From an uncultured Acidobacteriota bacterium (GTDB lineage Bacteria; Acidobacteriota; Thermoanaerobaculia; Gp7-AA8), in contig CALMZP010000167.1 in assembly GCA_937870635.1 (NCBI GenBank), positions 40,917 through 104,916 of the forward strand: DNA of 64,000 nucleotides. The letters are read 5' to 3'. Below are positions 9,085 through 63,926 of this stretch, piece after piece. The notes beneath the pieces were generated by a model. It did no database searches, was not told the origin of the DNA, and saw only the letters and a program-made list of their open reading frames with translations. Numbering within the stretch: the first letter of the stretch is position 1; each line of letters begins with the position of its first letter. The position numbers and the translations under genes are program-made.

Positions 9085-9437
9085 CGATCCCGCTGCGGGC
9101 GGTTGCGCGCCGCGATCTGGCCCGCCGCGGTGAGTGAAAGAGAGAGAGGTTGCCCTGCTTTCAGCGGCTGAAACGCTCTCCATTCACGATCCTGCCCCTG
9201 CCATCGGTAGGTCAGGACGAGATGCTCGCTGGGCGGGACCGACAGCGCGCGCGATTCGCCGTTGCGCAGCGTCCCGATCTGCACCGGTCCGCCAGCCGTC
9301 GCGAGAACCGCGTTCTCCATCGGCGCTCCCGACTGGTTCATCAGTGTGACCCGCGCGGGAATCCTTCCGGCGTCCCACGTGACGTAAAGCAGGCCGGCTA
9401 CGCCGGCCGCGAGGAACCACAGCGCCTTCTTTGGCAA
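9081..9437 (-). CDS. Small membrane-anchored hypothetical protein (probable TTG start)
   Basis: High GC3 codon bias. N-terminal hydrophobic helix PKKALWFLAAGVAGLLYV followed by a soluble domain. It fills the 355-bp gap between convergent genes. Confidence 0.4.
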   Translation of the reverse strand: MPKKALWFLAAGVAGLLYVTWDAGRIPARVTLMNQSGAPMENAVLATAGGPVQIGTLRNGESRALSVPPSEHLVLTYRWQGQDREWRAFQPLKAGQPLSLSLTAAGQIAARNRPQRDR

Positions 9438-9439
9438 GG

Positions 9440-10744
9440 TCAGACCGTTGCGAACGCGGCGTCGAGAGCCGAGACCAGCTCGTCGATGTCCGCCTTCGAC
9501 GCGATGAGCGGAGGACCAAGCCGGATCACATTGCCGAACAGACCACCCTTGCCGATGAGCACACCACGCCGGCGTGTCTCCTCGAACACCTTGAGCACGG
9601 CCTTCGGATGGGGTTCCTTCGTCTTGCGGTCCACGACGCACTCGATCGCCTGCATGAGACCCATGCCGCGCACGTCCCCGATCACGGGGTATTTTTCCTT
9701 CAGAAGCTCGAGCCGCTCGCGAAGATAGCCGCCGACCACCGCGGCGTTGCGCGGAAGCTCGTGCTCTTCCATATAGCGGATCGTGGCCACGGCCGCGGCG
9801 GAGGTCACGGGATTGCCGCCGAACGTTGAGAAGGTGAGCATGGGAAACGCCTTCGAGATCTCATCGGTCGTGATCGTCGCGCCGATGGGGGAGCCGTTGG
9901 CCATTCCCTTCGCGAACGTCATGACGTCGGGCTCGACGTCCCAGTGCTCGATTCCGCACCACTTGTCGCCCGTCCGTCCCCATCCGGTCTGCACCTCATC
10001 CGCGATGAAGATCCCGCCGTAGCGACTGATGATGTCCTTGACCAGGCCGAAGTACTCCTTCGGGGGGACGATGAAGCCGCCGACTCCGAGGATCGGCTCC
10101 GCGATGAAGCCCGCAATCTTGCCGCTCGTCGTCGTCTGAATCACCTCTTCGACGTCCTGCGCGCATTTGACGCCGCAGTCGGGATACGACTGGCCGAACG
10201 GGCAGCGGTAACAGTACGGCGCGATGGCGTGATGGATGCCGGGGACCGCCGTGCCGCCGAGGCGCCAGGTCGAGTGTCCTGCGGCGCTCATGGCGAGCAT
10301 CGTGCGGCCGTGATACGCGTGGCGCAGCGCGATGATCTCCTGGCGCCCGGTGTAGAGCCGCGCCAGAAGGATGGCTGTCTCGTCAGCTTCCGATCCGCTG
10401 TTCGTGAAGAACGTCCGGCTCAGATCGCCGGGTGTCACTTCGGCGACCTTCGCGGCGAGCTCCGCCGCCGGCTTGTTGATGTAGAGGGTCGACGTGTGGG
10501 TGACCTTGTCGACCTGCTCGTGAATGGCGCGGTTGACCGCCGGGTTGGCGTGTCCGATCGATACGGTGAGGACCCCGCCGAAGCAATCGAGGTAACGATT
10601 GCCCTGCTCGTCCCACACGTGCATCCCTTCGCCGCGCTCGATGACGAGCGGCGTCTCGTAGTACGTCGCCGCGGCCGGCCAGGCGTGCCGCTTGTACTGC
10701 GCGGTCACGTCCGATTTCGTTTTCGGGTCGAGTACGTCGGTCAT
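9440..10744 (-). CDS. Class-III (omega) aminotransferase, probable beta-alanine:pyruvate transaminase
   Basis: PLP fold-type I class III motifs (FIAEPILGVGGFIVPP, DEVQTGWGRTG, MTFAKGMANG with the PLP lysine). ATG at 10744 with a ggag RBS. Confidence 0.85.
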   Translation of the reverse strand: MTDVLDPKTKSDVTAQYKRHAWPAAATYYETPLVIERGEGMHVWDEQGNRYLDCFGGVLTVSIGHANPAVNRAIHEQVDKVTHTSTLYINKPAAELAAKVAEVTPGDLSRTFFTNSGSEADETAILLARLYTGRQEIIALRHAYHGRTMLAMSAAGHSTWRLGGTAVPGIHHAIAPYCYRCPFGQSYPDCGVKCAQDVEEVIQTTTSGKIAGFIAEPILGVGGFIVPPKEYFGLVKDIISRYGGIFIADEVQTGWGRTGDKWCGIEHWDVEPDVMTFAKGMANGSPIGATITTDEISKAFPMLTFSTFGGNPVTSAAAVATIRYMEEHELPRNAAVVGGYLRERLELLKEKYPVIGDVRGMGLMQAIECVVDRKTKEPHPKAVLKVFEETRRRGVLIGKGGLFGNVIRLGPPLIASKADIDELVSALDAAFATV

Positions 10745-10762
10745 GATTTCTCCAATTTCGCC

Positions 10763-11908
10763 TCAGCGACGCTCGGTCGAAGCGAGCGGAGCCTCGGGCT
10801 TCGCGTATCCCTCGTGCTCTTCTTCGTAGCCGCCATGGTATCCGGCCTGGTCGGGACGCTTGATCTGCGAGTGCGGGACGATGCGCTCCCGGCGCAATCC
10901 GCGGAAGTCGGCCAGGCTCTTCCATCCGCGTGAAGCGTTCTTCTCGAGGAATGCCGTCATGCCCGCGAGCAGCTCCCTGATCACGTTCGGACCGACCGCG
11001 TGGTCGAGCATGGCCGCGGTGCAGACCTGCGCGGTGCCACAGCCGAGGAGGAAGTAGCTGAGAGCGTGATCGAACGTCGAGATGCCGCCGATGCCCGAGA
11101 ACTCCTTGTCGGGGAAGGCTTTCGTCAGCTGCGCCATCTTCGCCAGCGACAGCGGCAGGATGGCCGGGCCTCCCAGCCCGCCGGGCGATACCTGTCCTTC
11201 GACATTCATTTCGAACTCGAGGGTCTCAGGATCGATGAGAGGCAGCGACGGAAAGGTGTTCGTCGACGAAACGGCATCGGCGCCGCCGCGGAAACATGCT
11301 TCCGCCTCGACGACGATATTGGCCGTGGCCGGAGTCAGCTTGACCCACACCGGAATCCGGGCCACTTCCTTGACGGCCTGCGTCACGACCGAGCAGAGGA
11401 CCTTGTCCTTGCCGACGTTCGAGCCCATGTCTACGCGGTCCATGTGGGGACAAGAGAAATTGAGCTCGACCGCGTCGCAGCCCTCGTCCTGCATGGCCTT
11501 CGTCAGGAGCTGCCAGTTATGCAGTTCCTTGTCGTTTCCCGAGCCGGCCATGATCGATGCGACGAGGACCTTGTTCGGGTAAGCCTTCTTGATCTTCGCA
11601 AGTTTGCCGATCCACCAGTCCAGCGGTTTGTCCGAGATCAGCTCCCAGTTCCACGACGCCATGAGAGTGGTGTCGGGGCGGCGGTTCATCGACAGACGTG
11701 TCTGGCCGTTGTCCGCGCGAAGGAACTTGGTCTTCGGACCTTTCACGTTGGTGACGGGGTGAAGGCCGATGGTCTTGCAGACCACACCGCCCCAGCCCGC
11801 GTCGAACGCCCGCATGATGTTCGCGTCCGACTCCGTGGGCGGCGCCGAAGCGAGCAGAAACGGATTGTCGAATCGAATCCCTGTGAACACCGTCGACAAA
11901 TCGGCCAT
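10763..11908 (-). CDS. Dihydropyrimidine dehydrogenase PydA/PreA-like subunit (DHOD-like TIM-barrel domain only)
   Basis: FMN/dihydroorotate-dehydrogenase-like barrel (GIGGISTFDHALSYFLLGCGTAQVCTA; SCPHMDRVDMGS). It lacks a C-terminal 2x[4Fe-4S] ferredoxin domain. ATG at 11908 with a ggagga RBS. Confidence 0.75.
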   Translation of the reverse strand: MADLSTVFTGIRFDNPFLLASAPPTESDANIMRAFDAGWGGVVCKTIGLHPVTNVKGPKTKFLRADNGQTRLSMNRRPDTTLMASWNWELISDKPLDWWIGKLAKIKKAYPNKVLVASIMAGSGNDKELHNWQLLTKAMQDEGCDAVELNFSCPHMDRVDMGSNVGKDKVLCSVVTQAVKEVARIPVWVKLTPATANIVVEAEACFRGGADAVSSTNTFPSLPLIDPETLEFEMNVEGQVSPGGLGGPAILPLSLAKMAQLTKAFPDKEFSGIGGISTFDHALSYFLLGCGTAQVCTAAMLDHAVGPNVIRELLAGMTAFLEKNASRGWKSLADFRGLRRERIVPHSQIKRPDQAGYHGGYEEEHEGYAKPEAPLASTERR

Positions 11909-12074
11909 CGGAAGTCCTCCGTCAGTGGGAAACAATGACTATACCGCTGATCACCCGGGGGACGGGAATGGTGAATGCTGAGTGGTGAGTGTTGAATGGT
12001 GAACCCAGGGGATGAAAGCGTTCCGCTTCACCACTGACCATTCACCATTCCACATTCACCATTCCCGTCTCTTC

Positions 12075-13565
12075 TTAGCTCTCCGCGGGACTGGCTTGCC
12101 GGTTAACCCCCATCATCAGCAGGTACACCACAAAGCTGAGCCCGAACGTCACAAACCAGGCGTGTGTATAGAGGTGGTCGAAGAGGGTCGGTTCGGCAAC
12201 GACGCCGCCTGGCGTCACCGCGGCACGCAGGAAACCGGGGACGACCGGCGCCACGGAGGCGACGAGCGCGATCACCGCTTTCCAGTTCGTGCCGTTGCTG
12301 TAGGTGTATTCGCCTTTGAGCTCGAAGAGGTCGCGGAGGTTCAGCTTCTGCCGGCGTACGACCCAGTAGTCAGCGATGAGGATGCCGCCCAGCGCGCCCA
12401 TCAGGCTCGAGTATCCGATGAGCCACGTGAAGATGTACGCAGCCGCGTCGGAGTAGAGCTTCCACGGCATCATGGCAATGCCGATGACGGCGGTAATCAG
12501 GCCGCCAGTCACATACGAGATGCGCCGGGGGCTGAGATTGGAGAAGTCGTTGGCCGGCGAAACGACGTTCGCAGCCATGTTCGTCGTGATCTGTGCCGCG
12601 AGAACGACGAGCGCACCGAAGATGATCACGATTGGCGAACCGATCATCGTGATGAGCTCCACCGGGTCCCACACGGCGCGGCCGAAGACGAGAATGGTGG
12701 CGCTGGTCACGGCGACACCGATGAACGCGAACAGGGTCATCGTGGTGGGAAGGCCGAGCGCCTGGCCGAGCATTTGTGAGCGCTGGTTCTTTGCGTAGCG
12801 CGTGAAGTCGGGGATGTTCAACGACAGCGTCGCCCAGTAGCCGACGTTCGCGGTCAGCGCGGCGGGAAAGAGCGCCCAGAAATCCGTATCTCTGCCGGCC
12901 TGGAGGCGGGAAGACTCGGCGAGGATCCGGCCAAGGCCGCCGCCGCTTCGGATCGCCCAGAAGAGCAGCGCCAGCCCGCCCAGCAGAAGAAGGGGCGCGG
13001 CCCAGCTCTCGAGCATTTTGATCCCTTCGGTGCCGCGCAGGATGATCACGACCTGAATCGCCCAGAAGATCATGAAGGACACCGCGGTCGCGTACGGCAT
13101 TGCCGCCCAGCCTGGCCACATGGCCGTGAGAAGCGCGTTGAGGGCAATGCCCCCGATCCAGGTCTGAATGCCGAACCATCCGCAGGCCACGATCGCGCGA
13201 AGCACCGCCGGCACGTTCGCACCGCGCACGCCGAAGCTGGCGCGGCAGAGCACGGGAAACGAGATGCCGTACTTCGTCCCCGCGTGAGCATTGAGCACCA
13301 TTGGTACGAGCACGATGATGTTGCCGAGGAGGATGGTGATGAGGGCCTGGGACCAGCTCATGCCCTGGGACATCAGCCCTGAGGCCAGCGTGTACGTCGT
13401 GATGACGACCGACATCCCGATCCACAGCGCGGCGATGTTGTACGTCGTCCAGGTGCGGCGCGCCGCCGGTGTCGGCGCCAGGTCGGGATTCCAGAGCGGG
13501 CTGTGCGAGACGTCCGCATCCAGCTCCACGAAGTCGCGTTGCGGCGGGGCCGGGCTCGTCGTCAT
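12075..13565 (-). CDS. NCS1 family nucleobase:cation symporter (uracil/cytosine/allantoin permease-like)
   Basis: 12-TM NCS1 topology and conserved segments (e.g. GISFPVLCRASFG, IQTWIGGIAL). ATG at 13565 with a ggagga RBS. Confidence 0.9.
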   Translation of the reverse strand: MTTSPAPPQRDFVELDADVSHSPLWNPDLAPTPAARRTWTTYNIAALWIGMSVVITTYTLASGLMSQGMSWSQALITILLGNIIVLVPMVLNAHAGTKYGISFPVLCRASFGVRGANVPAVLRAIVACGWFGIQTWIGGIALNALLTAMWPGWAAMPYATAVSFMIFWAIQVVIILRGTEGIKMLESWAAPLLLLGGLALLFWAIRSGGGLGRILAESSRLQAGRDTDFWALFPAALTANVGYWATLSLNIPDFTRYAKNQRSQMLGQALGLPTTMTLFAFIGVAVTSATILVFGRAVWDPVELITMIGSPIVIIFGALVVLAAQITTNMAANVVSPANDFSNLSPRRISYVTGGLITAVIGIAMMPWKLYSDAAAYIFTWLIGYSSLMGALGGILIADYWVVRRQKLNLRDLFELKGEYTYSNGTNWKAVIALVASVAPVVPGFLRAAVTPGGVVAEPTLFDHLYTHAWFVTFGLSFVVYLLMMGVNRQASPAES

Positions 13566-58802: not shown

Positions 58803-59447
58803 CTACTCCGACGGATTCGCGTCTTCTCTCGCCTTGATGCTGATCTCCACACGGCGATTCAGCTGGCGACCTTCGGCGGTCTCGTTCGTCGACTTCGGCT
58901 GCGACTCGCCGAATCCGCGCGCAACGATGTGGCGGCTGGCGACACCCTGGTCGACGAGGTAGTCGCGGACCGAGTTCGCGCGGCGTTTGGACAGGTCGAG
59001 GTTGAAGTCGGCCGAACCGACGGAGTCGGTGTGGCCGTCGACCTCAATGTAGTTGATGTCCGAATAGCGGCCGAACGTGGTCGCGAGCTCACGAAGAGTG
59101 GCTCTCGACTCGGAACGAAGAGCGGATGAGTTGAAGTCGAAGAGAATGTCGCTGGTGAGGCGGACTTCGATCTCGCCTTCGGAAGGACGGCTGACTTCGA
59201 CGCCCTCGATCTGACGGAGCTCTTTCTCCTGCTGATCCATGCGCCGTCCGATGGCCGCGCCGATGGCGCCGCCGATGACAGCTCCCGCCACTGCGCCGGT
59301 ACGGTTGTTACCTGACTGGTTGCCGATGACCGCGCCGGCCGCGGCACCTGCGCCGGCGCCGACTGCCGCACCGGTCTGTGTCTTCGTGGCGCATGAGACC
59401 GCCAGAAGGCTCAACACTGCTATGACGACTACGAGTTTGCGAAACAT
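58803..59447 (-). CDS. OmpA-family lipoprotein with an N-terminal Gly-zipper segment
   Basis: LAVSC lipobox, then GAAVGAGAGAAAGAVIG, then the OmpA_C domain (FDFNSSALRSESRATL...NRRVEI). Confidence 0.8.
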   Translation of the reverse strand: MFRKLVVVIAVLSLLAVSCATKTQTGAAVGAGAGAAAGAVIGNQSGNNRTGAVAGAVIGGAIGAAIGRRMDQQEKELRQIEGVEVSRPSEGEIEVRLTSDILFDFNSSALRSESRATLRELATTFGRYSDINYIEVDGHTDSVGSADFNLDLSKRRANSVRDYLVDQGVASRHIVARGFGESQPKSTNETAEGRQLNRRVEISIKAREDANPSE

Positions 59448-59531
59448 GTACTCCTCCATCGTTCTGAAAAACAAAAGGGCGCTCCCGTGGGAGCGCCCTT
59501 CGTCTAATTCACGAACGATACCCGTTGCGGC

Positions 59532-60182
59532 TCAGGCTGCGTTCGCGCGGACGTTGATCTCGACCCGGCGGTTCAGCTGGCGGCCGCTGGCGCTGGCGTT
59601 CGACGCCCGGGGCTGCGATTCGCCGTAGCCGATCGCGTCGATGCGCGAGCCGCGAACGCCGAGGTTCTGCAGGTAGCGCTCAACCGAGGCGGCGCGACGT
59701 TCCGACAGGCGCTGGTTGTACGAGGCCGATCCGGTCGAGTCCGCATGCCCCTCGACCACAATCGTGGTGTCCGGGTAGTTCTGGAACACTTCCGCCATCT
59801 CCCGCAGCGCGGAGCGCGACGCCGACCGGAGAGCAGTGGAGTTGTAGTCAAAGAGCACTTCGTTGCGGACGGTGACCTTCAGCTCATCTTCGTCGACGCG
59901 CGTGACGTCGAGGCCTTCGATCTGCCGGAGCTCGCGCTCCTGCTTGTCCATCATCGCTCCGACGATGGCGCCGGTGGCCACACCGACGACGCCGCCGATT
60001 GCCGCGCCGCGCTTGGCGTTGCCACTCCCTCGGTTGTTGCCGAGGACGCCGCCGACGATCGCGCCGGCCACACCGCCGATGACGGCGCCCTTTCGGGTCT
60101 TGTCCCGCTCGGTGGCCACATCGGCGAAGGCAGGGGTGACTGCCAGGAGAGCGATCAACAGTGTTGCGAAGAGCTTGTTCAT
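59532..60182 (-). CDS. OmpA-family protein with a Gly-zipper (paralog of the previous gene)
   Basis: Same architecture; OmpA_C motifs FDYNSTALRS...NRRVEI. Confidence 0.8.
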   Translation of the reverse strand: MNKLFATLLIALLAVTPAFADVATERDKTRKGAVIGGVAGAIVGGVLGNNRGSGNAKRGAAIGGVVGVATGAIVGAMMDKQERELRQIEGLDVTRVDEDELKVTVRNEVLFDYNSTALRSASRSALREMAEVFQNYPDTTIVVEGHADSTGSASYNQRLSERRAASVERYLQNLGVRGSRIDAIGYGESQPRASNASASGRQLNRRVEINVRANAA

Positions 60183-60303
60183 GGTTTCCTCCGTTTGAAC
60201 CTGCCTCCACTATCGCAACCGGAATGCCACTGTCACAATAACTATGGACAGAAGGCCCGGGCTGGGAGCCGGCTGGGCGGGCGAGAGGTGTACCATTCGC
60301 GCC

Positions 60304-61467
60304 ATGGCGGCCGGTGTACCACTGATTGATGTCATCCATAAGTTACTGGAATCAAGCGACTTGACGTTCCATGACTTCATGGAGATGGCGCTCTATCACC
60401 CCGAACACGGGTACTACGCCCGGGCCGAAAACCCGGTCGGGAAGGAGGGTGATTACGTCACTTCGCCCAGTCTTTCGCCCCTCTTTTCGGATACGCTGAG
60501 CCTGCTGGTTACCGAATTTGCGAGCCGTGGCGGCGACGAGGTGTCCACGGTTGTGGACATTGGCTGCGGGGATGGCTCGCTCATCCATTCTTTATATGAC
60601 GCGGTTGGAGCGCGGGCGATCTCGCCCGCGACCGAGATGGCGGGCGAGATCGCCCGCCCTCCACGTTTCTACGGGGTCGACCGCTCTCTGAGTCGGGTCA
60701 AGAGAGGGGATGGCGTCCAATTTGCCGGAAGCCTGGCCGAGGTTCCGCGGGAGGGTCAGCATCTCCTGATCGCGAACGAGCTCTTTGACGCTCTTCCGGT
60801 CCATCGCCTGGTCCAGCGTGGCGAGCATCTTCACGAACTGTGGGTGACGGAGCGCAATGGCGAGCTCGACTGGAGCGAGCATGAGGCCCCTGCGGCATTC
60901 GAAGACTATTTCGCGGCGAGAGACATCGAACTGGCCGACGGCCAGTTCGTCGACGTCTCGCTCGAGTGGGAATCGCAATTCGAGGAGATGTGCGGTTTCT
61001 TACGTCGGGGCGTGATTGTCGTCTTTGATTACGGATACCCTGAAAAGAGACTCTTCGACCCGCGGGTTCGGCGCTTCGGCACTTCAGCGTCTTATCGACA
61101 GCAGCGCGTCTCTCGAGATCTTCTGGTCGATCCTGGCCTTCAGGACCTGACAGCACACATCAATTTCACGGATCTGATCCGCGCGGGCGAAAGGAAGGGG
61201 TTACGGACAGTCTTCTTCGATCGGCAGGCGAAGTTCCTTCTCGCCCTGGGCGGCGCGGAGCACGATCTGCTGCGGCCGATCGACCAGGGCATGGATCAGA
61301 GGAAGATCGCCTCGCTCGAAGGCGGACTGGCCTTTCTGCAGCAGCGCGAGGATGCGAAGCGGCTTCTGCTGCCGGACGGGATTGGAGAGGACATCCGGGT
61401 CCTCGTGCAGATCAAAGACCTCGACGATTCGGGGTGGTCTTTTCAAAGACCGCTCTTCAATCGTTGA
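60304..61467 (+). CDS. MidA / NDUFAF7-like SAM-dependent methyltransferase (DUF185) encoded immediately upstream of nuoA
   Basis: FHDFMEMALYHPEHGYY, DFVTSPxLSPLF-like and IANELFDALPVHR motifs. Contains an in-frame REP-derived insertion (AVGARAISPATEMAGEIARPP). Confidence 0.8.
   Translation: MAAGVPLIDVIHKLLESSDLTFHDFMEMALYHPEHGYYARAENPVGKEGDYVTSPSLSPLFSDTLSLLVTEFASRGGDEVSTVVDIGCGDGSLIHSLYDAVGARAISPATEMAGEIARPPRFYGVDRSLSRVKRGDGVQFAGSLAEVPREGQHLLIANELFDALPVHRLVQRGEHLHELWVTERNGELDWSEHEAPAAFEDYFAARDIELADGQFVDVSLEWESQFEEMCGFLRRGVIVVFDYGYPEKRLFDPRVRRFGTSASYRQQRVSRDLLVDPGLQDLTAHINFTDLIRAGERKGLRTVFFDRQAKFLLALGGAEHDLLRPIDQGMDQRKIASLEGGLAFLQQREDAKRLLLPDGIGEDIRVLVQIKDLDDSGWSFQRPLFNR
60604..60664. repeat. 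Paired REP-like palindromes located inside the MidA coding sequence, in-frame
   Basis: gttggagcgcgggcgatctcgcccgcg ... ggcgggcgagatcgcccgccctccac. Confidence 0.8.
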
Positions 61468-61525
61468 CTCCTGAGACGTCACGTTTACAATTACGGGCGG
61501 TCTCGACGATTCACAGCGAGTAAAG

Positions 61526-61885
61526 ATGGCGAACTACTCAGTATTGCTGGTGGCTGCGCTTGTTGTGCTCTCCGTTCCGATTCTCACCCTTTTCATCATC
61601 GTGCCCCTCGTGAGCGCGTATCGAGCGAACAAGGTGAAACTCGAACCGTACGAGTGCGGCGTACCGGCCACGTCTCTTGCCTTCGACCACCGCTTCTCGG
61701 TGCGTTACTTCCTGATCGCTGTACTCTTCATCATCTTCGACGTCGAGACGGTCTTTCTCTTCCCGTGGGCGATCCGGTTCAAACAGCTCGGCTGGTTCGG
61801 GGCTGTCGAGATGGCAATCTTTCTTGCGATTCTCCTGATCGGTTACTTCTACGCGTGGAAGAGGAAGGTTCTTTCATGGGTCTGA
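61526..61885 (+). CDS. nuoA: NADH-quinone oxidoreductase subunit A
   Basis: 3-TM subunit of about 120 aa with a conserved YECG motif (EPYECGVP). Confidence 0.9.
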
Positions 61886-62937
61886 TCGAGAATCGCTTCG
61901 ACTCGAACGTCCTCACCACCTCCGTCGACAAGATTTTCAACTGGGCCCGCAAGTCATCGCTCTGGCCGATGCAGTTCGGCCTCGCCTGCTGCGCGATCGA
62001 GATGATGGCCGTCCTCGATCCGCGTCACGACATGGCTCGGTTCGGCGCGGAGGTCTTCCGCGCCACGCCGCGCCAGGCGGATCTCATGATCGTCTCCGGC
62101 ACGGTCACGGAGAAGATGGCGCCGATCGTCCGCCGGCTGTGGGATCAGATGCCCGAGCCGAAATGGGTGATCGCCATGGGTTCGTGCGCGACTTGCGGCG
62201 GCCCTTACGATACCTACGCCGTCACGCAGGGCGTCGACCGCCTGATCCCTGTCGATGTCTATATCCCCGGTTGCCCGCCGCGCCCCGAGGCTCTCATCTG
62301 GGGGCTGATGGAGCTGCAGAAGAAGATCGAGAAGATGCACATCCTCCGCAAAGGAGGAGAGGCGTACGACTTCGCGCGCGCCGCGGTGCGCGATTCGCTC
62401 CGGCCGCAGCACGAAGGTCCCGCCCTTCGCGCCGAGCAGGCCGCCGCGCAGCTCAAGCCCGCACCGGTATCGGGCGTGAAAAGAGAGGCGAAGCCGAGTG
62501 GGGCGCGGGCGACCCCGCCAGCGCTTTCCGCTCCGGCCCCAACAACCGCGGGCGAGGTCGCCCGCGCTCCACAGGATGCTGCCACTTCCACGGCTGTCCT
62601 GGAAGCCGATGTGCAGCAGGCGGCGGCGCCGGAAGTCGTGCCGGGCGACACGACCGATGGTGCCTCTCCCGCTGTCCCTTTTCACAAGGAAGATCTCACC
62701 CTGCCCGAGCGCATGCAGATGGCCGAGCAGATGGGCGGCAAGTTCGAGACGAAGCTCTTCGCGGCGATGGCGCAGACCGATTGCGGTGCCTGCGGCTGGG
62801 ACTGCGAAGGGTACGCGAACGCCCTCGCTACGGGCGAGACGAAAGACATCTCTCTCTGCGTCCCCGGCGAAGCAGAGACGCTCGATGAGCTGAAGAAGCT
62901 GATGGAACAGGCAGGGAAGGAGTACGAAGGGGCCTGA
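61876..62937 (+). CDS. nuoB: NADH-quinone oxidoreductase subunit B (N2 cluster motifs CCAIEM...GSCATCGG...PGCPP) with a C-terminal extension of about 170 aa: an Ala/Pro-rich linker plus a Cys-rich putative Fe-S domain
   Basis: Canonical NuoB core up to about residue 185. The tail then runs ...[10 protein letters not shown]...[54 protein letters not shown] at 61876 overlaps the nuoA stop. Confidence 0.85.
62498..62572. repeat. Paired (left copy degenerate) REP-like palindromes inside the nuoB linker, in-frame
   Basis: gtggggcgcgggcgaccccgccagcgct ... aaccgcgggcgaggtcgcccgcgctccac, encoding [25 protein letters not shown]. Confidence 0.7.
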
Positions 62938-63926
62938 TGTCAGAGACCACCCCCCCTCCAGCCGCGCCGGCCGCGGCACCCGCCGGCCGCACGGCAAGCG
63001 ACATCAAGCGCGACCCGCTTGTTCTCGTCGCCGTATCGCGCGACTGGGAGGCCGTCACCGACGCGAAGGAGTTCGCGAACGAGATCACTCTCATCGTCGA
63101 TCGCGCTCGCATCGTCTCCGTCTGCCGTGCCTTCAAGGACGAGGGGTTCAGCTATCTCGTCGATCTGTCCGGCGTCGATTACTCGAAGTACCCCGGACAT
63201 GCCGGCCCGCGGTTCGGCGTGGTCTACACCCTCTATTCATTCAACGCCAACAAGCGCGTCAGGCTCCGCACCTTCACCGACGAGAACACCCCCATCCCGT
63301 CCGTGACGGACGTCTGGAAGACCGCGAACTGGCACGAGCGCGAGACCTTCGACATGCTGGGCATCCAGTTCGAAGGTCATCCGAATCTCGAGCGGATCCT
63401 CATGTGGGAAGGCTTCAACGGGCATCCGCTCCGTAAAGACTTTCCGATCCGCGGCATCGACACCGGCGCGCGCATCTATCCCGAGGTCTTCCCGCCCGGC
63501 GGAGGACCGAAACCGGGATCGACGGGCAAGGACGCGAAGGACGTCAATATCTTCCAGGGCGAATGGAACACCTACGGCACCTGGCCTGCCGCGCAGATCG
63601 CCGGACAGCGCGCCGCCGCGAAGACGCAACAGCCCGCAGCGCCGGAGCTCGCCGCGGTTGTCGCGGAAACGGCGAAGCCGACCCAGGAAGCGCCGTGGCA
63701 CAACCCCGATCTTCAGCTGCCCGAGCGGATGAAGATGGCCGAAAAGGGGAGCCTCAAAGACAAGCTCTTCGCGGCGATGGCCCAGACCGACTGCACCGCC
63801 TGCGGCTGGGACTGCGAAGGCTACGCAAACGCGATCGCCACCGGCGAAACCAAAGATCTGACGCTCTGCGTACCGGGCGAACAGGAAACGGAGGACATGC
63901 TGAAGAAGCTGATGTCTGCGGGCTGA
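62937..63926 (+). CDS. nuoC: NADH-quinone oxidoreductase subunit C (30 kDa) with a C-terminal extension of about 130 aa ending in the same Cys-rich putative Fe-S domain
   Basis: NuoC core (…WHERETFDMLGIQFEGHPNLERIL…). The tail runs ...LPERMKMAEK...[55 protein letters not shown] overlap with the nuoB stop. Confidence 0.85.
   Translation: MSETTPPPAAPAAAPAGRTASDIKRDPLVLVAVSRDWEAVTDAKEFANEITLIVDRARIVSVCRAFKDEGFSYLVDLSGVDYSKYPGHAGPRFGVVYTLYSFNANKRVRLRTFTDENTPIPSVTDVWKTANWHERETFDMLGIQFEGHPNLERILMWEGFNGHPLRKDFPIRGIDTGARIYPEVFPPGGGPKPGSTGKDAKDVNIFQGEWNTYGTWPAAQIAGQRAAAKTQQPAAPELAAVVAETAKPTQEAPWHNPDLQLPERMKMAEKGSLKDKLFAAMAQTDCTACGWDCEGYANAIATGETKDLTLCVPGEQETEDMLKKLMSAG

Follow-up and report, generated by a model that had tools for sequence, protein, structure and literature searches.

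A MidA/NDUFAF7-family methyltransferase gene directly upstream of nuoA in an uncultured Acidobacteriota bacterium and the recurrence of its linkage to complex I genes

The gene at positions 60304–61467 (+ strand) of a 64,000-nt stretch of DNA from an uncultured Acidobacteriota bacterium (contig CALMZP010000167.1; the whole stretch is called the window here, and all coordinates are positions in it) encodes a MidA/NDUFAF7-family methyltransferase dependent on S-adenosylmethionine (SAM), and it lies directly upstream of the complex I gene nuoA. Membership in the family is confirmed at the levels of sequence, conserved residues, and fold. Genes of the Q-module of complex I are neighbors of midA in four or more separate MidA clades and phyla, with a fifth known from the literature, and this recurrence across lineages, rather than the synteny among close relatives, is the decisive evidence that supports a role in complex I. 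Conserved promoter-like elements in front of both midA and nuoA suggest that the two genes are promoted separately. The midA product belongs to a known enzyme family and stands in an expected functional context; the functional reading is reasonable, and the broader comparison strengthens it.

The product of midA

The longest open reading frame for midA begins at 60244, an alternative start lies at 60304, and both frames end at 61467. The start at 60244 was dropped in favor of 60304 on two grounds: the Met of the homologs aligns with residue 1 of the shorter frame in at least 90% of the sequences, and a conserved box resembling a −10 element is placed 6–8 nt 5′ of that codon. The start chosen in the original prediction is thereby backed. 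As 3002 homologs of the product were found at E ≤ 1e-3 (best non-identical match, 1e-213), midA is a genuine gene rather than a reading frame arising by chance; its closest named homologs come from metagenome-assembled genomes (MAGs) of Thermoanaerobaculia and other Acidobacteriota. With midA ending at 61467 and nuoA beginning at 61526, the gap between them (61468–61525) is exactly 58 bp. The prediction that a MidA/DUF185 gene ends 58 bp before nuoA on the same strand is confirmed by these coordinates and by the PF02636 and PF00507 matches of the two products.

The PF02636 (Methyltransf_28) profile matches the window MidA with an E-value of 3.4e-30 and 105.7 bits, against a cut-off of 23.3, and no NCBIfam model matches it. 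The best stretch covers profile positions 76–245 of 249, the N-terminal part of the profile being missing from the match because a clade-specific insertion at approximately residues 105–112 splits it off. In the PDB, sequence matches were obtained to 4f3n (E 1e-25), 1zkd (E 4.5e-23), and Dictyostelium MidA, 5ztz (E 1.9e-11). Residues were compared with 136 diverse representatives drawn from the results of searching 1.84 billion cluster representatives. All four invariant columns of the family (E159, D242, G244, and D281) are kept in the window MidA, as are 29 of the 31 nearly invariant columns, the two exceptions, E85D and V286I, being conservative. The kept motifs include GYY, GDxxT, the GxGxG SAM motif I (VVDIGCGDG), the acidic residues, NELFDALPVH, DYG, and D281-x-T. 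Both the class I SAM-methyltransferase motifs and the family-invariant residues are thus present, and their complete retention argues for catalysis.

The AlphaFold2 model of the window MidA has a predicted local distance difference test score (pLDDT) of 85.6 and a predicted template modeling score (pTM) of 0.88, and it shows the full-length fold of the family, with the methyltransferase core and the family-specific auxiliary domain. The top six matches of a Foldseek search of the PDB with this model are all MidA-family structures (4g67, 5zu0, 5ztz, 4f3n, and two chains of 1zkd), with E-values of 1e-21 to 1e-24, template modeling (TM) scores of 0.70–0.77, and 385–415 aligned columns extending over the full length. 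The next match is a generic methyltransferase with an E-value of 5.6e-7, separated from the six by ∼16 orders of magnitude.

Linkage of midA to complex I genes

A metagenome scan gave 80 loci of Thermoanaerobaculia-like relatives in which MidA is 49–62% identical to the window protein. Of the 64 loci with at least 300 bp of downstream sequence, 62 have nuoA within 1 kb of midA and in the same orientation, and nuoB and nuoC come after it. At the clear exception (L055), ompA and midA are kept, and a radical-SAM gene in convergent orientation and a GGDEF gene stand in place of the nuo genes; at another locus (L052), no nuoA is present in the 516 bp available after midA. The gene for the presumed substrate, nuoD, lies beyond the end of the window and comes after nuoC in the relatives. 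Because nuoH directly follows nuoD, with nuoI next, in all 24 relatives whose sequence reaches far enough (L012–L084, e.g. L021 at 9324–12330), the linked operon of this clade is of the 11-subunit type without nuoEFG. The synteny that the original prediction proposed to check is kept in relatives, but by itself it is uninformative: the divergent ompA gene, which is unrelated, holds its place just as often as nuoA does (62 of 63 loci), so that synteny within the clade is unable to separate functional coupling from inherited gene order. It was accordingly rejected as sufficient evidence. The spacer between midA and nuoA varies among the relatives. Spacers of 130–200 bp (L014, L020, L031, L036, L046, L051, L061, and L079) are filled with short tandem repeats such as TTCATTCTGCGTTCTGCATTC, those of L037 and L047 measure 547 and 848 bp, and at L025 the 3′ end of midA contains a long palindrome that is nearly perfect.

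For comparison across phyla, GTDB was scanned with one genome per species, using a consensus-first alignment of 9 sequences in place of a 137-sequence alignment that was too diverse for a genome scan. This yielded 80 loci from many phyla, and their neighborhoods were analyzed by tblastn with NuoA, B, C, D, and H queries within a 7-kb radius. In Nitrospirota, nuoA-B-C-D follow midA directly on the same strand at 10 loci (L090, L092, L093, L095, L102, L104, L125, L127, L137, and L146); at the Nitrospira locus L102 the operon continues with a fused nuoCD, E, F, and G and is therefore of the 14-subunit type, unlike that of the window. In a member of the Chloroflexia (L157), midA is followed at a distance of ∼0.8 kb by nuoABCDH. 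Another Acidobacteriota MAG (L156, 5366–8146) has the order nuoB, a gene for a 2x[4Fe-4S] ferredoxin-like protein, nuoB, and midA; nuoA, C, and D were not found in this 15-kb locus, the nuoB-midA cluster being detached from them. In cyanobacteria, ndhH, the homolog of nuoD, lies within 7 kb of midA on the same strand at 10 of 28 loci (L103, L105, L107, L109, L128, L129, L134, L136, L139, and L142). It is the immediate neighbor of midA at four of these (L109, L128, L129, and L134), and a single GAF-domain gene stands between the two in the Nostocales locus L105. The linked lineages form separate clades of a MidA tree that broadly tracks taxonomy. At ∼57 of the 80 loci there is no nuo gene within 7 kb, and the unlinked groups include Terriglobia, Acidiferrales, Thermodesulfobacteriota, Dehalococcoidia, and Methanoperedens. 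The linkage of midA to nuo genes is thus frequent and not obligatory.

These data bear on the possibility that the adjacency is merely inherited gene order and that MidA methylates a target outside complex I, be it a protein, a small molecule, or a nucleic acid, as in the DNA-related role proposed for Wolbachia MidA (PMC12455994). The equal conservation of ompA and nuoA in the clade, the distance of most MidA genes from nuo genes elsewhere, and the L055 locus, which keeps ompA and midA next to radical-SAM and GGDEF genes, would all fit such a history. We nevertheless consider it improbable, as no fewer than four distinct MidA clades show linkage to the Q-module (nuoA–D, nuoB, or ndhH), with varied partner genes and operon types, the chance of a single gene such as ndhH falling within 7 kb is only ∼0.2–0.7% per genome by our own rough estimate, and the eukaryotic ortholog has exactly this complex I function (PMC3829151). 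Because the MidA clades are separate and the partner genes and operon types differ, the association looks either ancient or repeatedly re-created, and not like one spreading block. The claim of the original prediction that linkage suggests an assembly role in complex I is thus supported by the recurrence, with the qualifications that synteny in close relatives says little by itself and that the implied co-transcription is doubtful.

Transcription of midA and the nuo genes

A putative sigma-70-type promoter with 10 of 12 consensus positions matched precedes nuoA, and its −35 box, TTGACT, contains the midA stop codon TGA (61465–61467). The pattern TTGAC[T/A]-16-TA[C/G]AAT occurs in 68 of 69 loci, 15–43 nt 5′ of the nuoA ATG, with both hexamers 90–100% conserved and the flanks poorly conserved. 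Its distance to the midA stop codon ranges across relatives from overlap to ∼795 nt. Since the distance to nuoA is kept and that to midA varies, the element is read as the phylogenetic footprint of a putative promoter belonging to nuoA. The stretch after the −10 box (61492–61505; consensus taCcGCGGTcTc, with a CCGCGG palindrome) is moderately conserved (55–85%) and could correspond to the site of transcription initiation or to an operator.

In front of midA, a box of the form TGTA[C/G/A][C/G]AT is found in 64 of 73 loci, 6–8 nt 5′ of an ATG or GTG codon that is residue 1 in 62 of the 64, and no Shine-Dalgarno sequence precedes the window gene. A −10 box a few nucleotides before the start codon without a Shine-Dalgarno sequence is the usual layout of leaderless mRNAs, and the arrangement here suggests that midA is transcribed from its own promoter as a leaderless mRNA. 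Farther upstream, a sigma-54-type promoter-like element, TGGCAT-N5-TTGCG, is oriented toward the divergent ompA-like gene at 59532–60182; read on the + strand as GCAA[C/T]-N5/6-TGCCA, it is present in 67 of 72 loci, and the midA unit is bounded upstream by this predicted element.

No terminator-like site was found by the scan in the 58-bp gap between midA and nuoA, as the original prediction had noted. A site returned by the terminator scan at 61418–61435, inside midA, was rejected because such sites occur at chance frequency (3 found versus 2.3 expected). A hairpin of 11 bp (GGGUGGUCUUU-UCAA-AAGACCGCUC) at 61431–61456, within the last codons of midA, has a z-score of −3.15 for a 131-nt region; it is peculiar to the window, with no conservation in relatives and no U-run after it, and it was rejected as a conserved terminator. 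An Rfam search of 59400–62000 returned nothing credible.

The shared strand, the short spacer, and the gap free of terminators are what one would expect if midA were the true first cistron of the nuo operon, read from one promoter upstream of midA and giving an enzyme stoichiometric with complex I, and the window-specific midA hairpin without a U-tract would make read-through plausible. This arrangement is unlikely. An internal promoter-like element with near-consensus −35 and −10 boxes precedes nuoA in nearly all loci at a distance kept to nuoA and not to midA, and midA, lacking a Shine-Dalgarno sequence and apparently leaderless, would be expressed differently and probably at a lower level. 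In addition, the linkage in cyanobacteria, including the Nostocales, tolerates intervening genes. The co-transcription of midA and the nuo genes that the original prediction implied is thus doubtful, each of the two having its own conserved putative promoter. Independent transcription of midA with its own terminator had been named there as a finding that would count against the assembly role; separate conserved promoters are indeed predicted, but there is no conserved terminator between the genes. Most likely, a low-level midA transcript would coexist with a strong, separate nuo promoter, and some read-through from midA into nuo would be possible, given the lack of a conserved terminator between them. 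Separate promoters leave the functional link unweakened, since that link rests on the recurrence across lineages. For annotation, the case is a caution that tight same-strand spacing does not place midA in the nuo operon.

The features of the region from 58803 to 63926 are collected in the table. The genes nuoA and nuoB overlap by 10 nt, and nuoC comes next. Upstream of midA are the two tandem OmpA-family genes, with a strong terminator-like hairpin between them (59501–59474, − strand), and farther upstream of this pair is an H+-pyrophosphatase gene.

Table. Genes and putative promoter elements around midA in the window
Feature	Position	Strand	Evidence
midA, MidA/DUF185/COG1565-family SAM-dependent methyltransferase, 387 aa	60304–61467	+	PF02636, PDB sequence matches, conserved residues, AlphaFold2 model
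nuoA, complex I subunit A / ND3	61526–61885	+	PF00507 (E 3e-33); 84–92% identity in relatives
nuoB, PSST homolog, carrier of cluster N2, long C-terminal tail with PF04060-like Cys motif	61876–62937	+	PF01058, PF04060, TIGR01957
nuoC, C-terminal PF04060-like tail similar to that of NuoB	62937–63926	+	PF00329, PF04060
Putative sigma-70-type nuo promoter (−35 TTGACT 61464–61469, 16-nt spacer, −10 TACAAT 61486–61491)	61464–61491	+	motif and conservation
Putative midA −10 box TACCAT, 7 nt before ATG	60291–60296	+	conservation only
Sigma-54-type promoter-like element TGGCAT-N5-TTGCG	60215–60230	−	conservation
OmpA-family gene, glycine-zipper N-terminal region, tandem paralog, divergent from midA	58803–59474	−	
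OmpA-family gene, glycine-zipper N-terminal region, tandem paralog, divergent from midA	59532–60182	−	

Proposed role and comparison with known systems

Taken as a whole, a role for MidA in the complex I Q-module, with arginine methylation of NuoD and separate promoters for midA and nuo, is the reading we favor and hold to be rather probable. The midA product would be a catalytically competent SAM-dependent methyltransferase tied to the neighboring Q-module, and its partner in this lineage would be a complex I of the nuoABCDHI... type with 11 subunits and without nuoEFG. By analogy with the mitochondrial enzyme, MidA may bind newly made NuoD and methylate the Arg of its HRGxE motif, adjacent to the Fe-S cluster N2 that NuoB holds, at a stage preceding the docking of NuoD onto NuoB. 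As a factor for maturation or assembly, it would be active in catalytic amounts. The midA gene is probably not a plain first nuo cistron and would have a weak, leaderless promoter of its own, with nuoA–N driven by the strong conserved sigma-70-type promoter, in which the predicted −35 box takes in the midA stop codon.

Complex I carries a symmetrically dimethylated HRGxE arginine in cattle, humans, Pichia, Yarrowia, and Paracoccus denitrificans; in Escherichia coli the arginine is unmethylated, and Thermus has Thr at this position (PMC3750175, PMC8042128). The dimethylated arginine of Paracoccus is carried by Nqo4 (PMC3750175), and in human cells NDUFAF7 is the enzyme behind the methylation (PMC3829151). 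According to a review, bioinformatic and structural evidence from Shahul Hameed et al. 2018 indicates that α-proteobacterial homologs of NDUFAF7 methylate NDUFS2 (PMC9006661). The sequence YLHRGxEK is present in all 45 linked NuoD/NdhH sequences, and NuoD of the window-clade relatives carries YLHRGTEKL. Finding the arginine is a weak test, since the residue is nearly universal and occurs, unmethylated, even in E. coli.

Several observations weigh against the favored reading, beginning with the equal conservation of ompA and the many unlinked midA loci described above and with the poor discrimination afforded by a nearly universal arginine. The nuoD gene of the window genome itself lies outside the window, and HRGxE is seen in NuoD of the relatives. 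The sequence match to 5ztz is limited to the N-terminal half, the window protein being nearer to the β-proteobacterial COG1565 proteins than to Dictyostelium MidA. The window MidA also stands on a long separate branch of the MidA tree, as a divergent, fast-evolving member, and midA is by far the fastest-evolving gene in the conserved block (60304–61467 compared with 61526–62355), with median identities among relatives of 58% for MidA, 89% for NuoA, 95% for the NuoB core, 74% for NuoC, and 69% for OmpA. All promoter assignments come from motif conservation, and a 2025 paper states that the function of prokaryotic MidA is inferred in silico only (PMC12455994).

The original prediction had also remarked on unusual tails of NuoB and NuoC, and these are present. 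The NuoB tail (62340–62937) and the NuoC tail (63460–63926) consist of long Ala/Pro-rich linkers ending in a domain of ∼60 aa, which matches PF04060 ("putative Fe-S cluster"), the N terminus of RnfB, and the N terminus of the sulfite reductase α subunit (PRK06214). A tail is found on one or both of the two proteins in 37 loci of relatives and in none of the other phyla sampled, including Nitrospira, Chloroflexia, and cyanobacteria, where midA linkage also occurs. The tail domain could be part of an alternative electron-input module in this nuoEFG-less operon. The tails, and the position of midA after nuoB copies and not nuoD in the L156 locus, might indicate that MidA serves complex I otherwise, by modifying NuoB or the Cys-motif tails of NuoB and NuoC, or that it is mainly a non-catalytic chaperone of NuoD. 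A chaperone-like step does form part of the known mechanism, MidA being reported by Shahul Hameed et al. 2018 to bind NDUFS2 and to release it once methylated. We regard these alternatives as very improbable, given that the SAM-binding and family-invariant residues are all kept, which favors catalysis, that the tails are missing from other lineages despite linkage, and that the cyanobacterial partner is ndhH, the NuoD homolog itself. Methylation of the NuoD arginine thus remains the favored function.

That MidA has a complex I role in bacteria was proposed earlier in the literature, and the idea is not new. What goes beyond the known is how widely the linkage is spread, over several phyla and with NuoEFG-less complexes and cyanobacterial ndhH among the partners, the implication that the association is not confined to proteobacteria, and the evidence for separate promotion of midA and nuo. 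The linkage in Acidobacteriota, Nitrospirota, Chloroflexota, and Cyanobacteriota, along with that in Actinomarinales according to a preprint, provides independent genomic support for the complex I role and widens it past α-proteobacteria and mitochondria to NuoEFG-less complexes and possibly to photosynthetic NDH-1. In the literature searched, the only explicit mention of a bacterial nuo-NDUFAF7 cluster concerns Actinomarinales (bioRxiv 10.1101/2021.02.01.429150), and no paper was found that ties NDUFAF7 to cyanobacterial NDH-1 or that deals with a methylated NdhH arginine. Mentions of "DUF185" in Price et al. proved to be false matches to DUF1854, and a mention of "dimethyl" in an NDH-1 paper referred to 3-(3,4-dichlorophenyl)-1,1-dimethylurea (DCMU). 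A more tentative generalization, to which we give slightly less credence than doubt, is that arginine methylation of the NuoD-type subunit through MidA is ancient and pan-bacterial, a general trait of the complex I Q-module and not a proteobacterial or mitochondrial specialty; it would extend to the 11-subunit NuoEFG-less complexes of Thermoanaerobaculia, Chloroflexia, and Actinomarinales and to cyanobacterial NDH-1, with the window enzyme translated from a leaderless mRNA that abuts the nuo promoter. If true, this predicts an as yet unreported dimethylarginine next to cluster N2 in cyanobacterial NdhH. The linkage also brings in genetically tractable organisms such as Anabaena/Nostoc and other cyanobacteria, where the role of the dimethylarginine near N2 could be told apart from that of the plain arginine, a goal named by Hameedi et al. 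2021.

When the window MidA is compared with human NDUFAF7 and Dictyostelium discoideum MidA, all share PF02636 and the conserved SAM-binding and invariant residues, and the full-length fold of the Dictyostelium structures 5zu0 and 5ztz is matched with Foldseek E-values of ∼5e-23 and TM scores of ∼0.7. They are also alike in being tied to the NuoD/NDUFS2 module, the target HRGxE arginine being present in NuoD of the window's relatives. In contrast, the identity in the structural alignment is ∼21%, with the sequence match confined as noted above, and the window enzyme is bacterial, its gene lies beside complex I genes, its partner would be an 11-subunit complex without NuoEFG, and its activity is predicted. 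The Paracoccus denitrificans Nqo4 and α-proteobacterial MidA system is likewise bacterial, and its HRGxE arginine is symmetrically dimethylated (PMC3750175), whereas the window sequence comes from a Thermoanaerobaculia-like member of the Acidobacteriota with a divergent MidA branch, and the evidence here is gene linkage. The closest solved relatives by sequence and fold are the structural-genomics COG1565/DUF185 proteins of Burkholderia thailandensis (4f3n and 4g67) and Rhodopseudomonas palustris (1zkd), from which the window MidA differs in having ∼22–23% structural-alignment identity and the insertion of its own clade. The most similar gene arrangement is that of Ca. Actinomarinales, where the cluster reads heliorhodopsin-nuoABCDHIJKLMN-NDUFAF7-htpX-pspE (bioRxiv 10.1101/2021.02.01.429150). 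There, too, a PF02636 gene lies in a same-strand block with an 11-subunit, NuoEFG-less operon, and the authors read it as an accessory assembly factor. In that phylum the gene is located 3′ of nuoN, whereas midA of the window precedes nuoA, with a conserved putative promoter between the two.

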